Shown here piece after piece: positions 2,975 to 15,045 of a stretch of 32,000 nt of DNA (its first letter is position 1; the number at the start of each line of letters is the position of its first letter). The notes under the pieces are model-generated. The model was not told where the DNA came from. It saw only the letters and a list, made by a program, of their open reading frames with translations, and searched no databases. Made by a program: the position numbers and the translations under genes. Location of the stretch: positions 60,001 to 92,000 of the forward strand of contig NC_022359.1 of assembly GCF_000354175.2 (NCBI RefSeq), read 5' to 3'. Origin of the DNA: Vibrio alginolyticus NBRC 15630 = ATCC 17749. GTDB lineage: Bacteria > Pseudomonadota > Gammaproteobacteria > Enterobacterales > Vibrionaceae.

Positions 2975-3275
2975 CTCAGATAGAATAGCCACCTAAGTTT
3001 GACGGTATTTTCTTCTAAATTTTATTGTCTTGAACCACCTCACAGATTTAATAACCCTTAACAATAAACACAATAATAGTTAAGGTATTTTTATGAGCCA
3101 GATCTAATAAAATTAAATATATAGTATTTATTTTAAGAATCTAAACTTTCAAAGTTCATCATAATAAATACAACCTCTATGTATACACTTTACCTTCAAA
3201 AAACATCAAAATATAATCCCTTCGATAAAAACACTTAAATGAATTTAACTGTATAAAAGTGAGGAGAATAAAAAT

Positions 3276-3794
3276 ATGGGATATGGGGCGACAGTATATT
3301 CATTAGATACTGAAAAGGTTTTTAACGTACTAAAGAATGAGCGTAATCCAGAGCTAGAAAAAGCCATCATGGAAAGGTGTCAAGACTCCTTTAAAGTGAT
3401 TAATGAAATGCTGGAAAGTAGTGGCGAAAGCATCCGAGCTGAAGAGCTTCTTATGCAAATGTTGTCTGAAGAGATAAAATACAGTCACTTGGGTTACGCC
3501 TATGCTTACTTGCTTGAAGCTATATGTAAGATAACTGGTTATTACTTATCCAATAACTCTTGGTATCCTTGCGATGTAAACGATTTCTGCGATATTCCAT
3601 TCACTAATACCGATTATCCTATAAAATTCCCATTCCCTGACGATTTCCCTGTTGTTTTTATGATAAAAAATCAAGATATTCACCAAGATAACGTTGACTT
3701 CGGAGGCTTATCAGAGCAACAAATATCTGAAGTCAAGAGCTGGTACACTCATGCAGTCGTAAACAATCGTGATTTGGTATTATTTTATTATTAA
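3276..3794 (+). CDS. Hypothetical protein, 172 aa, orphan gene in the AT-rich islet
   Basis: Good Shine-Dalgarno (GAGGAG at 3261..3266, 9 nt before the ATG). It is the only long ORF in the islet, has AT-rich codon usage, and two hairpins follow immediately. I see no confident family. The N-terminus (MGYGATVYSLDTEKVFNVL...P) and the hydrophobic C-terminal strand faintly recall the YfbM/DUF1877 family, unverified. Confidence 0.6.
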   Translation: MGYGATVYSLDTEKVFNVLKNERNPELEKAIMERCQDSFKVINEMLESSGESIRAEELLMQMLSEEIKYSHLGYAYAYLLEAICKITGYYLSNNSWYPCDVNDFCDIPFTNTDYPIKFPFPDDFPVVFMIKNQDIHQDNVDFGGLSEQQISEVKSWYTHAVVNNRDLVLFYY

Positions 3795-3828
3795 TTTTAA
3801 CTATTAATAAATTATCCAATAGTTAAAA
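3795..3828 (+). terminator. Hairpin 1 directly after the orphan gene stop codon
   Basis: TTTTAACTATT-12 nt-AATAGTTAAAA is a perfect 11-bp stem starting 1 nt after the TAA (3792..3794). It is AT-only apart from one C:G pair, so function is uncertain. Confidence 0.35.
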
Positions 3829-3844
3829 TAACAATAGAATATTA

Positions 3845-3879
3845 ATAAAACTCTAGCTTATATTAAGATAGAGTTTTAT
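3845..3879 (+). terminator. Hairpin 2 after the orphan gene
   Basis: ATAAAACTCTA-13 nt-TAGAGTTTTAT is a perfect 11-bp stem followed by a T-rich stretch (CTATTT). Confidence 0.4.
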
Positions 3880-4061
3880 CTATTTAACTGAATTTTATAA
3901 TTTTAAAAACATTATATTTCACACCTAATTTATAGACTCTGTGTATAGTGTGTTCAGAGGCAATGTGAACTCATAGGATCAAAATCAAGTTCTAATTTTT
4001 AGAAGAAAAACCGATCTGCTTGTGTCAAAATGCGCCATCCCAACCAAAAAGTCTTAATGTA

Positions 4062-5725: not shown

Positions 5726-6076
5726 TCATTCAATACCATGTAACTCTTTCCAGTTTCCTGGATGAACCACATAGCCGAACAGAGCATGCCCACCATAAAC
5801 CAATTCAGTTCCTTCCGGTATCCACAGCATCTGACCTGGGTGCACAAAATGTGTTTCACCATTTGCGGTCAGCTCGAAACAGCCTTCAATCACGAAAATA
5901 ACTTCATCATAAAGCACTGTCCAAGCCACTTTAGCGCCTTCCCATTTAGCAAAGCCTACGCCAATGTTTGGTGAAATTTCTGGGCTTAACGCCCTGGCAA
6001 CATACGCCATTCCCGGCGTATCACCACGAACATTGAAATCTAGACTTTTACTATCAACAAGTTTGACTTGCTTCAT
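5726..6076 (-). CDS. Small cupin-fold protein (EutQ/DUF861-like), last gene of the operon
   Basis: 116 aa with a cupin beta-barrel pattern (YDEVIFVIEGCFELTANGETHFVHPGQMLWIPEGTELVY). It lacks the HxH...E...H metal ligands of catalytic cupins. It has a 4-nt ATGA overlap with the upstream FAD oxidoreductase. Confidence 0.7.
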   Translation of the reverse strand: MKQVKLVDSKSLDFNVRGDTPGMAYVARALSPEISPNIGVGFAKWEGAKVAWTVLYDEVIFVIEGCFELTANGETHFVHPGQMLWIPEGTELVYGGHALFGYVVHPGNWKELHGIE

Positions 6077-7389
6077 AATTCACTCCGGCTTTGCCATTTT
6101 GCTAATTGGATACGCGTTTTTACTCCCAAACCTAAAAAAGGCTCTGGCGGATTCAAACAAGGCATTCCTGTCACTTGCTGTATGTCATCCAATGATTTAG
6201 ATGTCGCACCAACGACATAGTCAGCTAACAGTGTTCCAGAAATGGTTCCCCACGCAGCACCAACACCATTGTCACAAGCGCTGGCATAAACACCTTCATC
6301 TAATTGACCGAAAAAGTTAGTAAAGTTACGAGAGATGGCATACACCCCACCCCATGTGTGAGTAAATGGTACGTCGGCCAGCTCGGGATAACGCGCCAGA
6401 AAGACCTGACGATGATCTTCGCGAATTTGTTCTCTGGCTTTATCGTTCATGCTTGAGCCATATTTCGGCACGTGTTTGTAAGTATTGCGGATCAAAATAC
6501 GTCGATCGGCGGTCATACGTAACGTCGTTCCCGCATGATCAGCTGGAGTTAACCCCCAATTCAGCTCACCTCCGTATCGTTGCATTTCTGCGTCGGTCAA
6601 TGGACGCGTCCAGCTTGCAAACGTCATCACTGGAAGTAGTCTGTTTTTAAGATAACCAAACTCCCGAGTAAAAATGCTGGTCCCAAGCAGCAGTTCAGGG
6701 GTTTCAACAGAGCCACTATCTCCATGTAATACCCAGCAACCGTTTTCTTTACTGAGCTTGCGGATTGGCGAGTTCTCTAACACCTCGACGTTCTCTGGAA
6801 GGCTTTCCCCTAGTCCACGCACCAAAGCAGCAGGTTGCATTAAATAACCACCTGGCGTGTAAATTGCGCGGCTGTAGTAGTTGGTTCCCAAGACTTTCGC
6901 CAGCTCACTGCCATTAACATGGAAGTATGGTTCGCTAAGGTCTTTCATTAGGTGTTCAAAGTGATCGAGATATGCTTCACCGCGCGCCCCTACGGCTCCT
7001 TGATATTTGCCCTTTGCTGACCACTGACAAGAAATACTGTGCTTCGACACTAAAGTGTCTAGCTGAGCAATCGCAGAACGGTTGAGCGACAATAACTTTT
7101 GTTTGTGCTCAGGGTCGGGATGCTCAAGTGAAAACTTATGAGGCAAATCGATAACAAAGCCCGAATTTCTTCCTGAAGCCCCTTGGCCGATACGTTGCGC
7201 ATCAATCAGTATAATTCGTGCATTAGGCATAAGTTCAGCTAAACGTCTTGCCATAGCTAGGCCTGCGAAACCGGCACCTAACACGGCATAGTCAGCACTT
7301 TGTTTACCTTTTAACGCCGATTTTTCTGGAATACTTGGCAACGCATGGTACCAACCACACGTCACGTCATCATTGGGTAAATGAATCAT
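6073..7389 (-). CDS. FAD-dependent oxidoreductase, DAO family (PuuB/OrdL-like amine oxidoreductase)
   Basis: Dinucleotide fold DYAVLGAGFAGLAMARRL followed by RIGQGASGRNSGF. This mirrors the recalled E. coli PuuB motif (RIGFGASGRNGG). Length is 438 aa. Confidence 0.85.
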   Translation of the reverse strand: MIHLPNDDVTCGWYHALPSIPEKSALKGKQSADYAVLGAGFAGLAMARRLAELMPNARIILIDAQRIGQGASGRNSGFVIDLPHKFSLEHPDPEHKQKLLSLNRSAIAQLDTLVSKHSISCQWSAKGKYQGAVGARGEAYLDHFEHLMKDLSEPYFHVNGSELAKVLGTNYYSRAIYTPGGYLMQPAALVRGLGESLPENVEVLENSPIRKLSKENGCWVLHGDSGSVETPELLLGTSIFTREFGYLKNRLLPVMTFASWTRPLTDAEMQRYGGELNWGLTPADHAGTTLRMTADRRILIRNTYKHVPKYGSSMNDKAREQIREDHRQVFLARYPELADVPFTHTWGGVYAISRNFTNFFGQLDEGVYASACDNGVGAAWGTISGTLLADYVVGATSKSLDDIQQVTGMPCLNPPEPFLGLGVKTRIQLAKWQSRSEL

Positions 7390-7401
7390 CTTTTTTCTCC
7401 G

Positions 7402-8838
7402 CTACGCTGCTGACAGTTTCAATGACAATTGATCTAGCCAAGGGCCGCGTAATGACTGTACTTTTCTTCCTAGCAACGCAAAACCGAGCATTGCTCCTTC
7501 TGGTGAATAAAACGCAGCGGTCAATTCATCTGCTTGGTTCTCGATGTACCATTGTCCCTGTTCTTCAGCGGCTACCGAGAAAATCGTGAGTGGAAGAATC
7601 GGCGTTTTTACAATCACTGGAGTTGGTGTTAACGAGATAGGGGCGACATCGCCTAGCAAGCTTTTCGCTACAGAAGGGATCATTTGATTAATCGGTGCAA
7701 TATAGGGCTGCCAACCTTGCTCAGTTTCAACACAATCACCTAGCGAGTAAATATTCTCATCACTCGTCTGGCCGAATTGATTCACTTTAATGCCGCGGCC
7801 CACTTCGAGCCCTGCTTGCTCAGCCAGAGAAACATTTGGCTTGAGCCCAACCGCGCTCAGCACTAGATCTGCTTCAATCTGCTTGCCACTGTTTAGATGT
7901 AAAACCGCACTGGATTCGGACCTTGGTTCGATTCTGGTGATACTGTCTTGTAGAGCCCATTGCACGCCTCGATCGGCAAGTGCGCTTTGTAATGATTCAC
8001 CCAACTGTTGCGGGATCAAACGCTCCATTGGCCATTGACCCACCCCGATAACTGTTACTTCATAACCGCTTTCGATCAGATCATTTGCGAACTCACAGCC
8101 AATTAAGCCATCACCTAGGATCGCGATGCGCTTTTTGTCTTGCAGCTCCGCTCTGAAACGGCGGTAGTCAACTAAGTCGTTCACACTCATAACCCAAGAG
8201 CGATCGCCCTCAATTGGGATTTCAATCGGTGATGCACCTGTTGCCAGTACCAAGCGGCTGTAGGCGTATTTACCGATGGAGGTATGTAGCGTTGAATTGG
8301 CACGATCGATCTGTTCAACACGCGTATGCGGGTAAACGCGGATATTGAGACGGCTTTCCCACTCCAACGCGCTTTCACTTTGCAGCGCGTCGCCGTCTTT
8401 GTTCATGACCAACGCATTAGACAAAGCTGGTTTGCTGTACAGAGCGCCATCATCAGCGGTAAAGACGGTGATCGGAACCGTCTCAGATTGCGCTCTAAGT
8501 GCCGCCGCCAACTGGTAACCACTGTGGCCACTACCGATGATAACGATAGGGTCATTTGAGAATACAGGTTGAGTAACTTCAGATGGAAGAGGCTGAGCCG
8601 TATTTGGCTGAACAGACGCTTCTACCGACACCGAAGACACCGCTGCAACCTCTTCTAGTGGCGCATCATCGGTAATTTCGATCATTTCAAAATCGGCCTT
8701 ACCCACTAAACAGTCAGGACATAACCAGTCATCCGGTACATCTTCCCATGCTGTTCCTGGTGCAATGCCATCGGATGGCCAACCTTGTGCTTCATCATAG
8801 ATTAAGCCGCAAATAATACAGAGCCACTTTCTCATCAC
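7402..8838 (-). CDS. Rubredoxin domain fused to a NorW/rubredoxin-reductase-like FAD/NAD(P)H oxidoreductase
   Basis: The N-terminal rubredoxin has two Cys pairs (CIICGLIYDE...WLCPDCLVGK). A ~40-aa Ser/Val/Pro-rich linker follows. The reductase part has IVIIGSGHSGYQLA (FAD), IAILGDGLIGCEFA (NAD(P)H) and YSLGDC motifs. It is colinear with recalled E. coli NorW (IVIIGSGFAARQL...LVLATGAS...GGGLIGSELA...ALGDCAE). Confidence 0.85.
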   Translation of the reverse strand: MMRKWLCIICGLIYDEAQGWPSDGIAPGTAWEDVPDDWLCPDCLVGKADFEMIEITDDAPLEEVAAVSSVSVEASVQPNTAQPLPSEVTQPVFSNDPIVIIGSGHSGYQLAAALRAQSETVPITVFTADDGALYSKPALSNALVMNKDGDALQSESALEWESRLNIRVYPHTRVEQIDRANSTLHTSIGKYAYSRLVLATGASPIEIPIEGDRSWVMSVNDLVDYRRFRAELQDKKRIAILGDGLIGCEFANDLIESGYEVTVIGVGQWPMERLIPQQLGESLQSALADRGVQWALQDSITRIEPRSESSAVLHLNSGKQIEADLVLSAVGLKPNVSLAEQAGLEVGRGIKVNQFGQTSDENIYSLGDCVETEQGWQPYIAPINQMIPSVAKSLLGDVAPISLTPTPVIVKTPILPLTIFSVAAEEQGQWYIENQADELTAAFYSPEGAMLGFALLGRKVQSLRGPWLDQLSLKLSAA

Positions 8839-8977
8839 TTATACTCCAACTACCTTGTTCAGAATTTCCGTGTTTACAAACCGCTGTCAGATTTGTTGTG
8901 ATTCCATCAACCTCGCCCTAGCTTGTGGTCTGAAATCCAAGCCGGTACGAGGTGATGAAAATACAGTTACACGGTAG

Positions 8978-10414
8978 CTATACGTTGCTGTCTTGCTGCA
9001 AACGAATGGCAATATTGCGTGTCTGGACGTAGCTATAAATCGCTTCTTGTCCTTTTTCTCGCCCAAACCCGGACAAGCCCACGCCACCAAATGGTGTTTC
9101 GATGCCACCAGCAAACCATTCATTGATGAACACTTGTCCACCACGCAGTTGCTGTGCCACACGCAATGTTTGGTTTAGGCTTTCACCAAAGACACCAGCG
9201 ACCAGGCCAAAATCGGTGCCATTCGCGATTTCAACGGCCTCTTGCTCGGTTTCAAACGGTGTAATTACCAGTACAGGACCAAACACTTCTTCTTGAGCAA
9301 TACGCATATCTGGTGAGGCTTCAATCACCGTAGGTGCCACAAAGTAACCCGACAAATCAGGGGCGTATCCACCCGTTAGGATTTTCGCGCCGTCGGCTTT
9401 TGCTTGTTCTATCATTTCAAGCACGCGCGCTTGTTGATCAGCCGATACCAACGGTGTTATATCCGGCTGGCTTTCGCCTTGGCCAATGGTTAGGCTTTTT
9501 GCCATTTCCACAACCGCCGCTTTTACTTCTTCATAACGCTCTTTTTGAATCAGCAAACGAGACATTGCCGAACAAACTTGACCAGCGTTAAAGAAAATAC
9601 CGACTTGAACGCTTTGTAAAAGCGTTTCGAGACTCACATCTTTCAGTGCGATAGCGGCCGATTTACCACCCAGCTCCATCACAGATGGTGTGGCGCGTTG
9701 CGCTGAATCTTTCAGTATGCGTTGGCCGGTCGGCACAGAACCTGTAAAGACAATTTGATCAACGTCTTGATGCTGCACCAAGTGGCTGCCAACGACTGAG
9801 CCTTTGCCACATAGCAAGTTAATCGTGCCTTTTGGGAAGCCCGCTTTTTCAATCGCTTTAATCAACAACGTCATAGCGAGTGGGGAAATCTCTGGCGATT
9901 TGATCACCACTGCGTTACCAGCAGCTAATGCAGGAGCTAATGAGCGTGCACAAATAGAAACTGGGAAATTCCACGGCACAATCTGCACTGACACACCAAA
10001 CGGCACATATTGGGTGAAATCGACATAATCTTTACCCAACGGAATTGACGAGCCTTCCAGCTTGTCGGCCATGCCAGCGTAGTATTCGAAGTAACGTGCC
10101 GATTCTAAAAACTCATCTTTGGCATCTTGCAAAGATTTCCCATTTTCACGGCAGGCAACTAACCCACCTTCATCAACCATTTCACGAATAGCCGCGGCGG
10201 CTTTTAACATCCACTCGGTTCTGACGGCTGGACGAACGTCCGAAAGAAGACCTTGATTGACCACTCGACGTGCCGCTGCCATTGCGCGATCTGCATCGGT
10301 GATAGTGGATTCTGCAATCGTCGCATACGCTTCGGCTGTGCCAGGGTTCATGACGGTCAGCGCTTGCTCTGAATCGCACCACTCACCATCAATATAATTA
10401 AGGTAATGCATCAT
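8978..10414 (-). CDS. NAD(P)+-dependent aldehyde dehydrogenase
   Basis: 478 aa. ALDH hallmarks are present: VMELGGKSA (catalytic Glu), FFNAGQVCSAMSRL (catalytic Cys) and EEVFGPV. The start lies 1 nt after the Rieske gene stop, implying translational coupling. Confidence 0.9.
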   Translation of the reverse strand: MMHYLNYIDGEWCDSEQALTVMNPGTAEAYATIAESTITDADRAMAAARRVVNQGLLSDVRPAVRTEWMLKAAAAIREMVDEGGLVACRENGKSLQDAKDEFLESARYFEYYAGMADKLEGSSIPLGKDYVDFTQYVPFGVSVQIVPWNFPVSICARSLAPALAAGNAVVIKSPEISPLAMTLLIKAIEKAGFPKGTINLLCGKGSVVGSHLVQHQDVDQIVFTGSVPTGQRILKDSAQRATPSVMELGGKSAAIALKDVSLETLLQSVQVGIFFNAGQVCSAMSRLLIQKERYEEVKAAVVEMAKSLTIGQGESQPDITPLVSADQQARVLEMIEQAKADGAKILTGGYAPDLSGYFVAPTVIEASPDMRIAQEEVFGPVLVITPFETEQEAVEIANGTDFGLVAGVFGESLNQTLRVAQQLRGGQVFINEWFAGGIETPFGGVGLSGFGREKGQEAIYSYVQTRNIAIRLQQDSNV

Positions 10415-10415
10415 A

Positions 10416-11603
10416 TTACTGCTCCAGTGCCGCTTTCACTTGCTTTGCCAACCAGGTTTGGAAGAAATGCGTCGGAACATCCATTTCTGGTGAGAACACA
10501 CCACCACCAAAGCCAGGTGAGTAACGACCTTCCTGCATACCTTCGACCGCTCCAATATCTTCGCCGAATACGACTCGCCATGACTCAACGGTAGCAGTAC
10601 GGCACGCAGCGAACTCATCTTTCGTTGCTTCATCACCCACATAGAAAACACGTAGGTGCTCAACACTCTTATTCGCAGTGATTGGTTCAATCATCATCGC
10701 AAAGGCATGATCGGCTTGAATACCAAGCAACACGTTTGGAAAGAGTGCAACATATTCTGCATGACGCAGTTTATCTTCTGGCCAGCTTGGAAATTTAGGT
10801 AAGTGTGTTCCTGCAGTATCAGAGAGGTTGTATGCGAGACTACCTTGGCCAGCAAAACGCTCTGCAAACATGATGTTGTAGTGATCCTCTAGGCGAGAAT
10901 AACTGTTCAAACTCGGATGCACCCAAGGTAAGTGGTAAGCTTCACAGTAGTTTTCTACGGCAAGCTTCCAGTTACTTTTCACTTCTATCTCTAAGTTGCC
11001 ACCCATGTTCACGCGGCGAAGAAGCCCTAATCCTTCTTCACCTAAGAATTGCTGCCAACGTTGCTCTAGCGGCGCGATATGCTCTTCAAAGCTTTCTGCT
11101 TTGCCCGATAAGTTGACGAATACCATGTCCATCCAAACGGCTGAACGAAGTGGCTTAAGGCCATGCTTTTCACACTTAAATCGGTCATCTTTGTGTTTTG
11201 CGATACCACCGATGTGTGGTGTGCCTTTTAGATTGCCGTCAAGATCGTACGTCCATGAATGGTAAGGACAGCGAATCATGCCTTGAACTTCGCCTGCCTC
11301 ATGAACCAGCTTCATACCTCGGTGGCTACACACGTTGTGGAAGACTTGGACTTCACCTTGACGATTTCTCATCATGAGTAGTGGAAGATTCATGAAATCA
11401 AGTGGCATTACATAACCATTTTTAAGCAGGTCTGATGCAAAACCAATGCATACCCAAGTGTTACCAAACACCTGATCACGCTCAAAAGTAAAATACTCTT
11501 CGCTGGTGTAGGCCTGATTCGGCATTCCTGTTGCTTCACTGATTGGGTTCAGTACATTATCAACAAGTTCAACAGGAATAATGGTTTGGTTGACATTGCT
11601 CAT
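10416..11603 (-). CDS. Rieske [2Fe-2S] non-heme-iron oxygenase alpha subunit (choline-monooxygenase-like / CntA-GbcA-type class), first gene of the operon
   Basis: Rieske motif CSHRG-x16-CPYHSW. Mononuclear iron motif ENYCEAYHLPWVH (E-x3-E-x2-H-x4-H). 395 aa, with a GGAGA RBS 7 nt upstream of the ATG. No beta subunit gene is present. Confidence 0.9.
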   Translation of the reverse strand: MSNVNQTIIPVELVDNVLNPISEATGMPNQAYTSEEYFTFERDQVFGNTWVCIGFASDLLKNGYVMPLDFMNLPLLMMRNRQGEVQVFHNVCSHRGMKLVHEAGEVQGMIRCPYHSWTYDLDGNLKGTPHIGGIAKHKDDRFKCEKHGLKPLRSAVWMDMVFVNLSGKAESFEEHIAPLEQRWQQFLGEEGLGLLRRVNMGGNLEIEVKSNWKLAVENYCEAYHLPWVHPSLNSYSRLEDHYNIMFAERFAGQGSLAYNLSDTAGTHLPKFPSWPEDKLRHAEYVALFPNVLLGIQADHAFAMMIEPITANKSVEHLRVFYVGDEATKDEFAACRTATVESWRVVFGEDIGAVEGMQEGRYSPGFGGGVFSPEMDVPTHFFQTWLAKQVKAALEQ

Positions 11604-11791
11604 ATTCTTATCTCCGAGAGTCGAGTTGCATCCAGTGCGTACAACATCGTGTTGTGTTAGTGGAGATGATTTTGATTAACAACCCGGCAACAAACAAACG
11701 ACTTTTTCGCCGGGCTTGGATGAGTTTTTGTCATTCATGCATTGATCTTGAACAAAAAACAACCTTTTAATTAACAATGATCTTCTTGTCA

Positions 11792-11825
11792 TGATTAATA
11801 CTCATTAACCGATGAGTATTAATCA
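11792..11825. promoter_or_regulatory. Perfect 14-bp inverted repeat (candidate operator) in the divergent promoter region
   Basis: TGATTAATACTCAT-taaccg-ATGAGTATTAATCA has all 14 positions complementary. It lies 97 bp upstream of the BCCT ATG and 189 bp upstream of the Rieske ATG. No T-tract follows on either strand. Confidence 0.45.
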
Positions 11826-11921
11826 GTTGAAACACAAAAGCCCTCTCTCTACTCTCTTTCAAAAATTAACAATAACGCAACAAACAATAACGCTAAAACA
11901 AACGCACTGTGAGGGATGCCT

Positions 11922-13658
11922 ATGAGAGCAACATCTGGGATATTGAAAGGACTCAATCCGACTGTGACTATCGCATCAAAGATCGTCGTTATCGGTTTTG
12001 TACTTTTCTGCGCCATTCTCGCCAACCAAGCGGGCCAATACTTCGAAACGATTTCCGGCATTTTGCTGCAGAATATGAAGTGGTTTTACATCGGACTTGT
12101 TTCACTCGTTGTCGGTTTTCTTCTTTACCTTATGGTTAGTCGATATGGACATATTCGTTTGAGTAAAGATGACGAAAAACCAGAGTTTAGTTATTTGTCT
12201 TGGGTATCCATGCTTTTTTCCGGAGGCATGGGGATAGGCTTGATTTTCTGGTCGGTCGCCGAACCGATGTGGCATTACGCTGACAACCCATTTACTCAAG
12301 GCCTGACCAATGAAGCCGCAACAACATCAATGAAACTGACATTCTTTCACTGGGGTCTACATCCTTGGTCTGTCTTTATCATTGTTGCACTCGCATTAGC
12401 TTACTTTTCCTACCGTAAAGATCTGCCTTTTACCCTACGCTCTATCTTGTACCCTTTGATTGGTGATCGTATTTATGGGCCTATCGGACACACGGTTGAT
12501 ATCCTAACCGTCGCGGTGACTGCTTTCGGTATCTCTCAAACCTTGGGGATGGGAGTTATCCAAATAAACTCTGGTTTGAATCAAGCCTTTGGTCTAGATA
12601 TTAGTTTGGGGATTCAACTCTTTATTATCGTTTCCCTTTGTACTTGTGCGGTTGCGTCGGTGCTATCTGGTGTAGGAAAAGGTATTCGCCGTTTATCAGA
12701 ATGGAACATGCTGCTCTCACTCGCACTCGTGCTAGTCGTACTTTACATTGGTCCAACTCGCTATATCTTAAATACGCTACTCGAAAGCACGGGGCTTTAT
12801 GCACAAAACATTGTCGGTATGAGCTTATGGAGCGATGCACAGAATGACTCTGGCTGGCAAAACTGGTGGACGGCTTATTACTGGCCTTGGTGGATGACTT
12901 GGGCACCTTTCGTTGGCATGTTTGTGGCTCGTATCTCTAAAGGGCGCACAATACGTGAGCTTATCGGTGGTGCTCTCATCGTACCTACGCTGATCACGTT
13001 TTTATGGATTTCAGTATTTGGTGGCGCAGCGTTAAAGGTAGAGCAAGACGCTCGTGTTGCTCATCAAGAGCAAGTCACTGCGGCACAAGAAGCCAAACAA
13101 ACACCACCTGCGGATTTTTCTGGCGGCCCGATTCTTGAAGCGACTAAAGCCGATACGACACGCGCTTTGTTTACGCTATTCGACAATCTAGATACAGGTA
13201 TGTTTGGTAAACTACTTAGCGTACTTGCGTGTTTATTACTCGGTACTTATTTCATTACCTCCGCTGACTCGGGTACCTTGGTTCTATGTACCCTCGATGC
13301 CGCTGGGCACAGTGAGCCTCCTACCTCTATACGCGTATTGTGGGGGATCATGATCGCAGCCATTGCGGGAGTACTTCTATACGCAGGAGGGTTAAAAGCA
13401 ATGCAAACGGCCTCCATTATTGCCGGTTTCCCTATCGCCATTTTTATCGCGGTGATGAGCTTAACGCTGTTTCATAGTATTCGACGCGAACCTAAGCCAT
13501 GGGCAATGCTTCCTGAACATGTTCACCCAGAACAAGAGAAACTTGATGGTCCTGTTGAACCGCTTGTTGAAAGCAAAACTGTGGCTTCCGAGCCTATCGC
13601 TTCAAGATCCTCGCTGAAAGATGATTCCACACTCAATCAGGGACCAGTACTAAGTTAG
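11922..13658 (+). CDS. BCCT-family (betaine/carnitine/choline) transporter
   Basis: Twelve-TM profile with BCCT signature regions (WVSMLFSGGMGIGLIFWSVAEP; WTAYYWPWWMTWAPFVGMFVARISKGRTIRE). It has a hydrophilic ~60-aa C-terminal tail. The GAGGG RBS at 11911..11915 favours the ATG at 11922 over the ATG at 11916. Confidence 0.9.
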   Translation: MRATSGILKGLNPTVTIASKIVVIGFVLFCAILANQAGQYFETISGILLQNMKWFYIGLVSLVVGFLLYLMVSRYGHIRLSKDDEKPEFSYLSWVSMLFSGGMGIGLIFWSVAEPMWHYADNPFTQGLTNEAATTSMKLTFFHWGLHPWSVFIIVALALAYFSYRKDLPFTLRSILYPLIGDRIYGPIGHTVDILTVAVTAFGISQTLGMGVIQINSGLNQAFGLDISLGIQLFIIVSLCTCAVASVLSGVGKGIRRLSEWNMLLSLALVLVVLYIGPTRYILNTLLESTGLYAQNIVGMSLWSDAQNDSGWQNWWTAYYWPWWMTWAPFVGMFVARISKGRTIRELIGGALIVPTLITFLWISVFGGAALKVEQDARVAHQEQVTAAQEAKQTPPADFSGGPILEATKADTTRALFTLFDNLDTGMFGKLLSVLACLLLGTYFITSADSGTLVLCTLDAAGHSEPPTSIRVLWGIMIAAIAGVLLYAGGLKAMQTASIIAGFPIAIFIAVMSLTLFHSIRREPKPWAMLPEHVHPEQEKLDGPVEPLVESKTVASEPIASRSSLKDDSTLNQGPVLS

Positions 13659-13680
13659 TGCGTCGTTTCATCAATCAATT

Positions 13681-13712
13681 AAAAAAGCGGGAACTGATAT
13701 TCCCGCTTTTTT
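13681..13712. terminator. Bidirectional rho-independent terminator after the BCCT gene
   Basis: AAAAAA-GCGGGAA-ctgata-TTCCCGC-TTTTTT. A-run and T-run flanks make it usable from both strands. Confidence 0.8.
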
Positions 13713-13776
13713 AACATTACCATGTGCCGTCCTAAATAAGGTTGACACTTTCCACCCCCCAAAATTGGAGAGTGTT

Positions 13777-14169
13777 ATGAAATCAACAACTAAAAGAACT
13801 CAGCGCGATTACTCCCTCGCTTTTAAACTCACTGTAGTTGATGAGGTTGAAAAAGGAAGCCTCACTTACAAACAAGCCCAAGAGAAGTATGGCATCCAAG
13901 GTTGCTCTACGGTTTTGGTTTGGCTTCGTAAGCATGGTCGACTAGATTGGTCTAAAGGGACACCTAACTTTATGTCCAAAGGAGACTCTATGACCGAGTT
14001 CAATTCACCTCCTACACCAGAGCAACGTATTAAAGAGCTTGAAAAGCAGCTCGAAGATGCTCAACTCAAAGCCGACTTCTTTGAAGCTGTCGTGAACGTT
14101 ATGGAACGTGACTATGGTGTTAGAGTGACAAAAAAGCACAAAGAAGCGTTGTCCAAGAGAAAACCATAG
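13777..14169 (+). CDS. IS3-family transposase OrfA (HTH + leucine-zipper region)
   Basis: MKSTTKRTQRDYSLAFKLTVVDEVEKG... is a typical IS3 OrfA HTH. The coiled-coil segment is IKELEKQLEDAQLKADFFEAV. The ATG at 13777 is preceded by GGAGAG. The track's TTG at 13765 is unlikely. Confidence 0.88.
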   Translation: MKSTTKRTQRDYSLAFKLTVVDEVEKGSLTYKQAQEKYGIQGCSTVLVWLRKHGRLDWSKGTPNFMSKGDSMTEFNSPPTPEQRIKELEKQLEDAQLKADFFEAVVNVMERDYGVRVTKKHKEALSKRKP

Positions 14170-14174
14170 TAGGT

Positions 14175-14981
14175 TTGAGCGTTACGAAGTTTTGTCAGTT
14201 AGTACAAATCTCTCGCCAAGCTTATTATAAGCAATGCCAAACTCAATCTCGTTGTGAACATCATGAGCATACTGTCATTGGCTTTGTCCGTGAAGTCAGG
14301 CTGAAGCAGCCACGCATTGGCACGCGTAAACTGAAGTTCTTAGCAGCAACAAAGGGCATTCAAATAGGTCGCGATAAGCTCTTTGAACTTCTCAGAAAGC
14401 ATCGGCTGTTAGTGAGAGCAAGACGAGCCTATCACCGAACGACTGACAGCCGTCATCGATTTTTCTGTCACCCAAACAAAGTGAAAGATGGGCTGACACC
14501 AACGAAGCCAGAACAACTGTGGGTTGCTGATATTACTTACTTGCCAACTCAAAATGGAGAGAGTTATCTCAGCTTGGTTACAGACGCTTATTCAAGGAAG
14601 ATTGTTGGTTTTTATGTGGATGACAACATGAAAACTCAATCAGTTAAGCGGGCATTTATCTCAGCTCTCAGGCAACGGCAGAGTGAAGAAAAGCTAATAC
14701 ACCACTCAGATAGAGGTTCACAATACTGTTCGAAGGAATATCAAGATATCCATAAGAAACATAGAGTGACTTGCTCAATGACTGACGGGTATGACTGTTA
14801 TCAGAATGCTTTAGCTGAGCGTGTAAATGGGATACTCAAAATGGAGCTCTTGCTGAAGAAACCGAAAGATCTGAAAGAAGCAAGGACGATGGTAGCAGAG
14901 TCCGTAGATATCTATAATCAAATGAGGCCTCATACGGCTTTAAAATACAAAACGCCCGATGAAGTACATCGAGCGTTTTAG
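14175..14981 (+). CDS. IS3-family transposase OrfB (DDE / rve integrase core), expected to be made as an OrfAB fusion by -1 frameshifting
   Basis: DDE-type core: WVADITY (D), HHSDRGSQY (D) and NALAERVNGILK (E). The -1 frame is open from the slippery site at 14130..14136 through to 14175, with no stop codon. Confidence 0.88.
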   Translation: MSVTKFCQLVQISRQAYYKQCQTQSRCEHHEHTVIGFVREVRLKQPRIGTRKLKFLAATKGIQIGRDKLFELLRKHRLLVRARRAYHRTTDSRHRFFCHPNKVKDGLTPTKPEQLWVADITYLPTQNGESYLSLVTDAYSRKIVGFYVDDNMKTQSVKRAFISALRQRQSEEKLIHHSDRGSQYCSKEYQDIHKKHRVTCSMTDGYDCYQNALAERVNGILKMELLLKKPKDLKEARTMVAESVDIYNQMRPHTALKYKTPDEVHRAF

Positions 14982-15045
14982 TTAAAAAGTGTCAACCCAT
15001 ATCAGGACGGGTCACCAAACTCTGTTATTGTCTCTGCTTATTGAT

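Follow-up and report, generated by a model that had tools for sequence, protein, structure and literature searches.

Which compound does a bacterium break down with an operon that joins a Rieske oxygenase, an aldehyde dehydrogenase (ALDH), a rubredoxin-fused reductase, a flavin adenine dinucleotide (FAD)-dependent amine oxidase and a small cupin, and by what chemistry? The question is raised by a locus of Vibrio alginolyticus NBRC 15630 = ATCC 17749, located in a stretch of 32,000 nucleotides (contig NC_022359.1, positions 60,001 to 92,000 of the forward strand) that we call the window and to which all coordinates refer unless another locus is named. Here, five minus-strand genes are divergent from a gene for a BCCT-family transporter, with a gene for a LysR-type regulator nearby (Table 1). 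Our analysis indicates that the operon, the transporter and the regulator most likely serve to import a quaternary-ammonium nutrient and to degrade it oxidatively. An earlier note on this DNA had proposed the same, and the proposal is supported by the kinship of the oxygenase to CntA, by the conserved aromatic residue expected to make a pi-cation contact, and by the co-conservation of the BCCT and LysR genes with the operon.

The layout and the spacings were obtained from a six-frame listing of the open reading frames (ORFs) of the window, the domains were assigned with Pfam, and the family level was judged by the equivalog cut-offs of NCBIfam. All six genes described in the earlier note were recovered where it had placed them, its domain assignments were all upheld by Pfam, and the ORF listing reproduced the five-gene minus-strand layout with its spacings (1 nt between the Rieske and ALDH genes, 139 nt between the ALDH and reductase genes, 12 nt between the reductase and FAD oxidase genes, and a 4-nt overlap of the latter with the cupin gene). 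No gene of the module reaches an NCBIfam equivalog cut-off, and full-text literature searches returned neither a characterised match nor a description of the cluster, in line with the view that the gene set corresponds to no characterised pathway. The sole mention that we found concerns the Psychrobacter copies (L008 and L009 among our loci), which have been referred to as an incomplete carnitine cluster (PMC6514802).

As judged from the comparison of genomes, the gene arrangement is more than the result of chance, and the same order recurs in dozens of genera. A species-level scan with one genome per species returned at least 599 stretches with relatives of the Rieske protein, the best 80 loci of which were examined; some of the counts given here were made over the 60 closest loci, and the residues of the Rieske protein were tabulated over 90 related loci (52-100% identity). 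The order Rieske-ALDH-reductase-FAD oxidase-cupin is common to Gamma- and Betaproteobacteria. About 46 of the 60 closest loci have it complete, with Vibrio, Oceanimonas, Pseudoalteromonas, Acinetobacter, Psychrobacter, Halomonas, Pseudomonas, Thauera, Cupriavidus and Paraburkholderia among their genera, and within the 80 loci it also recurs in Zobellella, Colwellia, many Pseudomonas and relatives of Thauera. Copies of the operon are also present in Enterobacter and Rahnella, and the assembly collection contains 390 blocks with an identical Rieske protein. The most constant part is the Rieske-ALDH pair, retained in 61 of the 80 loci, while the FAD oxidase and the cupin are found in about 46. 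In most close relatives the BCCT and Rieske genes are divergent, and among the 60 closest loci there are 54 in which a LysR homologue adjoins one or the other. Thus, the co-conservation of the operon with the BCCT gene, which the earlier note had suggested examining across related genomes, and with the LysR gene holds in many genera, although the linkage to BCCT is not universal, as some Pseudomonas lineages possess a major facilitator superfamily (MFS) transporter instead.

The Rieske protein comprises the Pfam domains Rieske and Ring_hydroxyl_A, with the motifs CSHRG and CPYH of the Rieske cluster (CxH...CxxH), and no beta subunit is encoded in the operon. Its closest relative in the PDB is the carnitine monooxygenase CntA (6y8j, E 5.3e-36), and the phmmer alignment of the two proteins matches Y219, E221, H224, H229 and D349 with Y203, E205, H208, H213 and D323 of CntA. 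The residues of the iron site (H224, H229 and D349) and the bridging E221 are invariant in the related loci, and the position of CntA Y203 is occupied in every related locus by Tyr or, in a few of them, by Phe. In CntA, the quaternary nitrogen is contacted by Y203 through a pi-cation interaction, and this residue marks group Va, which comprises CntA, the choline monooxygenases and OxyBAC, whereas the N-demethylases of group Vb have Asn at the same position (PMC7948474). No Asn of the group Vb type was found at this position in the related loci. The placement of the protein among the quaternary-amine oxygenases was therefore sustained, with CntA as its nearest relative of solved structure and the pi-cation aromatic residue retained, and we assign it to the "bacterial CMO-like" branch of this group. 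The bacterial CMO-like proteins are close homologues of the plant choline monooxygenase (CMO), to which no function has been assigned and in which the choline-binding residues proposed for the true CMOs are not kept (PMC6157903). In addition, the tabulated positions of the catalytic domain vary hardly at all among the 90 related loci, which suggests that the whole family shares one substrate class.

This substrate is unlikely to be carnitine, because the carnitine-binding residues Y225, N270 and Y295 of CntA map to H241, G294 and L317 of the Vibrio protein, although the alignment is weak in this region and the mapping is approximate. The Acinetobacter baumannii CAR system, composed of CntAB and a malic-semialdehyde dehydrogenase, resembles our operon in the possession of a Rieske oxygenase made of the alpha subunit alone, the pi-cation aromatic residue, an adjacent ALDH gene, a BCCT gene and a LysR gene. 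However, the similarity to CntA is limited to E 5e-36, the carnitine-binding residues are not kept, and CntB, an FMN/[2Fe-2S] protein, is replaced here by a rubredoxin-fused flavoprotein of the glutathione-reductase type; moreover, our cluster additionally encodes a flavin amine oxidase and a cupin and lacks a malate dehydrogenase. We therefore rejected carnitine as the substrate on account of the mismatch of both the binding residues and the reductase type. The pathways of the glycine-betaine monooxygenase GbcAB/BmoAB and of the proline-betaine demethylase Stc2/HpbB1C1 likewise combine a Rieske enzyme acting on quaternary amines with subsequent flavin-dependent amine oxidation, and Sox-like and GbdR-like neighbours are found near distant members of our family. 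GbcA and Stc2, however, belong to group Vb with its Asn, in contrast to the Tyr/Phe of the operon's Rieske protein; the GbcA equivalog model (NF058607) scores 128.4 bits versus a cut-off of 670 and matches residues 16-240 only, and the alignment to Stc2 covers mainly the N-terminal half (residues 28-233 of the query). From these sequence relationships, the operon appears to follow the same working principle as CntAB, GbcAB and Stc2, though it belongs to none of these pathways.

The reductase consists of a Rubredoxin domain (residues 4-50), a Pyr_redox_2 domain (98-373) and a C-terminal Rbx_binding domain (401-471), and the CxxC...CxxC cysteines of the rubredoxin are kept in all 63 of the orthologues compared, so that the electron-transfer partner is indeed rubredoxin-based, as had been noted before. 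We presume that it supplies the Rieske oxygenase with electrons, and the operon contains no further gene for a ferredoxin or a reductase. The same set of three domains is known from AlkG/AlkT, RubA/RubB and NorW, but here, unlike in AlkG/AlkT and RubA/RubB, rubredoxin and reductase are united in one chain, and the context is a Rieske oxygenase rather than an AlkB hydroxylase or a flavorubredoxin. The best NCBIfam model is NorW, with 308.5 bits versus a cut-off of 392. A gene for the NorR regulator is located at 1324-2877 of the window; in other strains its immediate neighbour is norV, which encodes the flavorubredoxin. With NorW as the best-matching family of the operon's reductase and norR/norV nearby, automatic annotation could mix up the two systems.

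The ALDH (Pfam Aldedh, E 7e-148) is closest to the betaine-aldehyde dehydrogenase (BADH) model TIGR01804, though with 409.6 bits versus a cut-off of 668.6, and it also falls below PRK13252 (381 bits versus 593) and PuuC (294.7 versus 850). It contains the motif PWNFPVSICAR, and the seventh position after PWN[FY]P is Arg (Arg157), a residue of the substrate channel, in each of the 60 orthologues that have this motif. This position we take to be Trp in the betaine-aldehyde dehydrogenases, and Arg in the succinate-semialdehyde dehydrogenases and in AldA. The invariance of Arg157, together with the residues that we assume for the other ALDHs, leads us to read the substrate of the enzyme as an aldehyde that bears a carboxylate or is at least not cationic. 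With Arg in place of the presumed Trp of BADH, the plant route from CMO to BADH becomes the least apt among the precedents that had been named for this locus, although choline monooxygenase annotations and the close homology of the bacterial CMO-like proteins (PMC6157903) link it, together with yeast Cmo1, to the family; the operon also lacks the ferredoxin partner of that route.

The flavoprotein, which is 99% identical to other V. alginolyticus proteins, matches the Pfam family DAO (E 6.9e-43), but none of the NCBIfam models closely: the best one, for the L-pipecolate oxidase AmaA (NF050086), scores 116.2 bits versus 600, followed by a putative aminophosphonate oxidoreductase with 105 bits. 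A single-sequence search returned no relative from the PDB, and a profile search returned glycine oxidase (4e-11). Its AlphaFold2 (AF2) model is poor, the substrate domain included (pLDDT 66.3, TM about 0.5), and the top folds are only indicative: glycine oxidase, dimethylglycine dehydrogenase (DMGDH), the L-amino-acid deaminase of Proteus and sarcosine oxidases. Sequence and model together point to an amine- or amino-acid-oxidase fold. The description of this protein as a "PuuB-like" amine oxidoreductase is thus correct at the family level, but it does not extend further, as neither a PuuA-like glutamine synthetase nor a PuuD hydrolase of the Puu pathway is encoded in the operon or among its conserved neighbours.

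The cupin is related to EutQ by Pfam (E 4.6e-15) and by NCBIfam (55 bits versus 193, with the C-terminal cupin part alone aligned), and its AF2 model (pLDDT 88.8) finds EutQ structures (2pyt and 4axo) as the best folds, while no eut genes were found near the operon. Neither an invariant His nor any other conserved metal ligand is present in 14 orthologues, so the characterisation of this cupin as ligand-less was accurate. A homologue search returned 166 proteins, all of them orthologues from the operon, with at least 56% identity among the matches listed.

Additional clues to the substrate come from the neighbours of the operon in other genomes. In Pseudomonas syringae and P. jessenii, where an MFS transporter gene and a Cupin_7 gene take the place of the BCCT gene, a gene for HglS (678 bits versus a cut-off of 550) is located 3' of the operon on the same strand (15920-17314 in L087 and 15940-17334 in L093), and in P. 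jessenii a gene for YdiJ, a D-2-hydroxyglutarate dehydrogenase, follows further along (L093, 19613-21218). HglS and YdiJ convert 2-oxoadipate to 2-oxoglutarate. This arrangement recalls the AmaA/AmaB/HglS/YdiJ route of lysine and pipecolate degradation in Pseudomonas, in which a DAO oxidase and an ALDH are likewise followed by HglS and YdiJ; however, the flavoprotein of our operon is far from AmaA (116 bits versus 600), and the ALDH is not of the AmaB type according to its best matches. In Arhodomonas, the Rieske, ALDH and reductase genes precede a gene for a GbdR-like regulator, one for a different DAO enzyme and SoxB/D/A-like genes, which replace the FAD oxidase and the cupin, and Sox-like or DAO genes also flank more distant members of the family. 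This replacement suggests that an amine is left to be oxidised once the ALDH has acted. Two distant loci have genes of the enolase superfamily, from the family of cis-3-hydroxyproline dehydratases, next to the Rieske gene, and genes of the MttB superfamily flank seven loci. Of the 80 loci, 14 have a DddP-like M24 gene no more than 10 kb away from the Rieske gene, in varied positions (e.g. 5344-6690 in L001 and 12697-13989 in L025); in P. oligotrophica such a gene lies inside the operon, beside an AcuI-like reductase, and the copy from Oceanimonas scores 629.5 bits versus the DddP cut-off of 600, with three others scoring lower (371-422). The window contains neither DddP-like nor HglS genes, and there are no Sox-like or enolase-type genes among its annotated neighbours.

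Taken together, we tentatively propose, at somewhat less than an even chance, that the operon encodes an O2- and NADH-dependent catabolic module for a carboxylate-bearing quaternary ammonium compound, most likely a betaine of the amino-acid type. This general mechanism is suggested by the fact that nearly all loci pair an onium-binding Rieske oxygenase with a carboxy-aldehyde ALDH and some flavin amine oxidase. Gene content, co-conservation, cofactor motifs and residue patterns are read from the sequences themselves; from these we infer the substrate and every chemical step. The substrate would enter the cell via the BCCT transporter, with the LysR protein activating the divergent promoters. 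Electrons from NADH would reach the mononuclear iron by way of the reductase's FAD, the rubredoxin domain fused to it and the Rieske cluster, in this order. With the onium group resting on Tyr219, the Rieske oxygenase would hydroxylate a non-methyl carbon that adjoins the nitrogen, whereupon the C-N bond would break to give an aldehyde. The ALDH, holding the carboxylate at Arg157, would turn the aldehyde into an acid, and the DAO-type flavoprotein with its cupin partner would oxidise the remaining amino or methylamino group to yield a 2-oxo acid.

As to the identity of the substrate, our first preference is for the betaines of cyclic imino acids, proline betaine and pipecolate betaine, which we regard as possible rather than probable. 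Oxygenation would open the ring, so that proline betaine would be converted via N,N-dimethyl-glutamate semialdehyde and N,N-dimethyl-glutamate to 2-oxoglutarate and dimethylamine, and pipecolate betaine via N,N-dimethyl-aminoadipate semialdehyde and N,N-dimethyl-aminoadipate to 2-oxoadipate and dimethylamine. Our second preference, which we consider unlikely, is N6-trimethyl-lysine, which would be cleaved to trimethylamine and allysine, with the latter oxidised via 2-aminoadipate to 2-oxoadipate. Both classes of substrates would employ every gene of the operon. The cyclic betaines fit the Sox-like, enolase and HglS neighbours, while N6-trimethyl-lysine fits HglS/YdiJ and chemistry like that of CntA, but not the Sox-like and enolase neighbours.

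Several points weigh against this proposal. The substrate is guessed from neighbour genes of other genomes, where the linkage to HglS is limited to one subclade of Pseudomonas and the linkage to the enolase-type genes to two loci; the window has neither gene, and HglS is absent from most of the loci as well. The DddP-like genes of 14 of the 80 loci and the MttB-like genes of seven loci are left unexplained, and the cupin has no role assigned in the model. To our knowledge, there is no precedent for rubredoxin as the donor to a Rieske oxygenase, and its role here is deduced from the gene context. Finally, the alignment to CntA is weak in the catalytic domain, which makes the mapping of the pocket uncertain, and the meaning of Arg157 depends on the residues that we presume in other ALDHs.

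The alternatives have to be judged against the same evidence. Because the Rieske-ALDH pair is tight and more conserved than any other part of the operon, it fits an aldehyde that comes straight from the oxygenase, and this speaks against serial N-demethylation, in which the Rieske enzyme would take one methyl group, as GbcA and Stc2 do, the flavoprotein would deal with the others or with the ring, and the ALDH would act last or detoxify formaldehyde. The Tyr/Phe at the position of CntA Y203, instead of the group Vb Asn, and the N-terminal, low-scoring match to GbcA point in the same direction. The SoxBDA-like, DAO, MttB-like and GbdR-like genes beside distant members do resemble the content of glycine-betaine clusters, and the AmaA-like FAD oxidase with an ALDH mirrors the AmaA/AmaB pipecolate route of P. 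putida into HglS; nevertheless, we find this explanation quite unlikely. Very unlikely, in our opinion, is the direct cleavage of choline by the Rieske oxygenase to trimethylamine and glycolaldehyde, with the ALDH making glycolate and the flavoprotein acting on the amine or on the glycolate. Such products have been thought to arise from the action of yeast Cmo1 (PMC5816127), JGI labels members of the family as choline monooxygenases, and the bacterial CMO-like proteins are close homologues of the plant CMO (PMC6157903). The BCCT protein is similar to transporters of betaine and choline, and GbdR-like regulators are located near several loci. Furthermore, AldA, a glycolaldehyde/lactaldehyde dehydrogenase, presumably has Arg at the same position as our ALDH. 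However, cleavage of choline would give no obvious task to the conserved flavoprotein or to the cupin and would leave the linkage to HglS/YdiJ and to the enolase-type genes unexplained, and the proposed choline-binding residues are those that the bacterial CMO-like proteins have not kept (PMC6157903).

The plant-like conversion of choline to betaine aldehyde by the Rieske enzyme and to glycine betaine by the ALDH, either for osmoprotection or as an entry to catabolism, was downgraded in view of Arg157, which should repel a cationic aldehyde if the corresponding residue of BADH is Trp, as we assume. It is true that BADH is the best NCBIfam model of the ALDH and that choline monooxygenase annotations are attached to members of the family, and the locus L074, with MttB-like, Rieske, ALDH, SoxBDAG-like and DAO genes in a row, reads like a path from choline to glycine. 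But the ALDH scores 409.6 bits where 668.6 are required, a flavin amine oxidase would be unable to act on the quaternary product, and vibrios already own betIBA (PMC7876524), and we regard this conversion as extremely improbable. We give a similarly slight chance to the catabolism of sulfonium compounds, in which the Rieske enzyme would cleave or oxidise dimethylsulfoniopropionate (DMSP) or a relative and the ALDH would oxidise malonate semialdehyde. The window lacks a DMSP lyase and no task would be left for the amine oxidase, and for these reasons we downgraded this possibility; besides, the ALDH differs in type from the CoA-acylating malonate-semialdehyde enzymes, many members of the family come from soil Pseudomonas, Cupriavidus and Paraburkholderia, and most of the linked DddP-like copies tested remain below the DddP cut-off (371-422 bits). 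What prompts one to consider DMSP at all is the presence of these copies near the Rieske gene in 14 of the 80 loci, once inside the operon with the AcuI-like reductase, the passing score of the Oceanimonas copy, and the combination of BCCT, LysR and ALDH, which is reminiscent of the ddd cluster of Halomonas, though a DMSP lyase (DddD, DddP or other) is not found in the window. Trigonelline was also considered, with reference to the tgn genes of Acinetobacter baylyi, and rejected, because TgnAB is a flavin-dependent two-component oxygenase and not a Rieske enzyme.

Table 1. Features of the Vibrio alginolyticus locus (coordinates in the window)
Feature	Position	Strand	Remark
EutQ-like single-domain cupin, 116 aa	5726-6076	-	4-nt overlap of its start with the stop of the FAD oxidase gene
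DAO-family FAD-dependent amine/amino-acid oxidoreductase, 438 aa, distinct subfamily	6073-7389	-	
Fusion of rubredoxin with an NADH:rubredoxin-reductase-type flavoprotein, 478 aa	7402-8838	-	12 nt from FAD oxidase
ALDH-reductase spacer with strong stem-loop	8839-8977	-	-49.1 kcal/mol, z = -3.36
ALDH, NAD(P)-dependent, 478 aa	8978-10414	-	139-nt gap to reductase gene
Rieske non-haem-iron oxygenase alpha subunit, 395 aa	10416-11603	-	1 nt from ALDH
Divergent control region Rieske/BCCT	11604-11915	.	perfect 14-nt inverted repeat inside
BCCT-family transporter, 580 aa, divergent from operon	11916-13658	+	presumed importer
Perfect 15-nt inverted repeat, A-/T-runs on either side	13679-13714		just past BCCT stop codon
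IS3-family insertion sequence between BCCT and LysR genes	13723-15014	+	outside the module
GcvA-like LysR-type regulator, 308 aa	15046-15972	-	presumed regulator of the module

The BCCT protein (Pfam BCCT, E 1.6e-175) scores 557.8 bits with the NCBIfam model of betaine BCCT transporters (cut-off 650) and 435 with BetT (695). The regulator matches NF008352, of the GcvA subfamily, with 288.1 bits versus a cut-off of 288, which confirms the nearby GcvA-like LysR gene of the earlier note, and it scores 251 bits with the choline-sulfate regulator TIGR03418 (cut-off 324.8). Two of the gene starts deserve comment. The start of the reductase is more likely the ATG at 8835, because a 477-aa protein is called in other strains. 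In the case of the transporter, the second ATG gives the 578-aa protein that other strains have, and the control region then measures 318 bp, as had been stated previously, while from the first start it measures 312 bp.

Within this control region, positions 11792-11825 form an inverted repeat with 14-nt arms, TGATTAATACTCAT-N6-ATGAGTATTAATCA, which is a candidate binding site for the regulator and is identical in six other assemblies of V. alginolyticus. The region upstream of the Rieske gene in other genera contains dyads of different sequence, which have ATGA/TCAT cores and lie at a distance of about 110-125 nt from the gene. A promoter scan returned fewer consensus sites than in shuffled sequence, and no Rfam family matches were obtained anywhere in the window. 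The 139 nt that separate the ALDH and reductase genes form a long hairpin, which may tune the expression of the downstream genes: none of 200 shuffled sequences was as stable, and a terminator with a T-run was not found in this spacer. At the same junction in Pseudoalteromonas, Oceanimonas and Enterobacter, unrelated inverted repeats are present, as judged from the alignment by eye. The hairpin just past the BCCT gene looks like a bidirectional terminator.

An insertion sequence of the IS3 family, overlooked by the earlier note, begins 8 nt past this terminator-like repeat. Both of its reading frames, orfA (13765-14169) and orfB (14175-14981), match the IS3 transposase model, and inverted repeats of 25 nt border the element. 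Comparison with the uninterrupted locus L081 showed that its ends are TG..CA and that 3 bp of the target (CCA) were duplicated. Among six other V. alginolyticus assemblies sampled, the element is present in one (L083, CP014044.1) and absent in five, and in the strains that lack it the distance between the LysR and BCCT genes is about 93 nt. In Enterobacter (L089 and L090, 7364-7786), a gene for a Y1-transposase of the IS200-like type is found at the same junction, from which it follows that the BCCT-LysR junction has been hit independently by mobile elements in two genera. Elsewhere in the window, positions 3001-4000 have 30% G+C compared to about 45% in the remainder; this segment includes an ORF (3276-3794) for a 172-aa DUF7691 protein, between the NorR gene and a gene for a HAD-phosphatase.

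Betaines, choline, carnitine, trimethyl-lysine and other quaternary amines rank among the major osmolytes and nutrients, and their breakdown determines the release of trimethylamine and dimethylamine by bacteria in the sea, in the soil and in the gut. It is tempting, if doubtful, to consider the module described here as a new aerobic route for the cleavage of a quaternary amine derived from lysine or proline, and its oxygenase as the first Rieske enzyme fed by a rubredoxin-fused reductase. If the latter is true, the rubredoxin-fused reductase would constitute a new electron-transfer class for Rieske oxygenases, and if trimethyl-lysine turned out to be the substrate, the operon would provide the missing bacterial enzyme system that makes trimethylamine from it. 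Knowledge of the substrate would also improve the annotation of genes that are labelled "aromatic ring-hydroxylating dioxygenase" or "EutQ" in many genomes. As the hosts include culturable bacteria (Vibrio alginolyticus, Pseudomonas and Acinetobacter) and the regulators and transporters are conserved, the question of what this widespread operon degrades is open to direct experiment.

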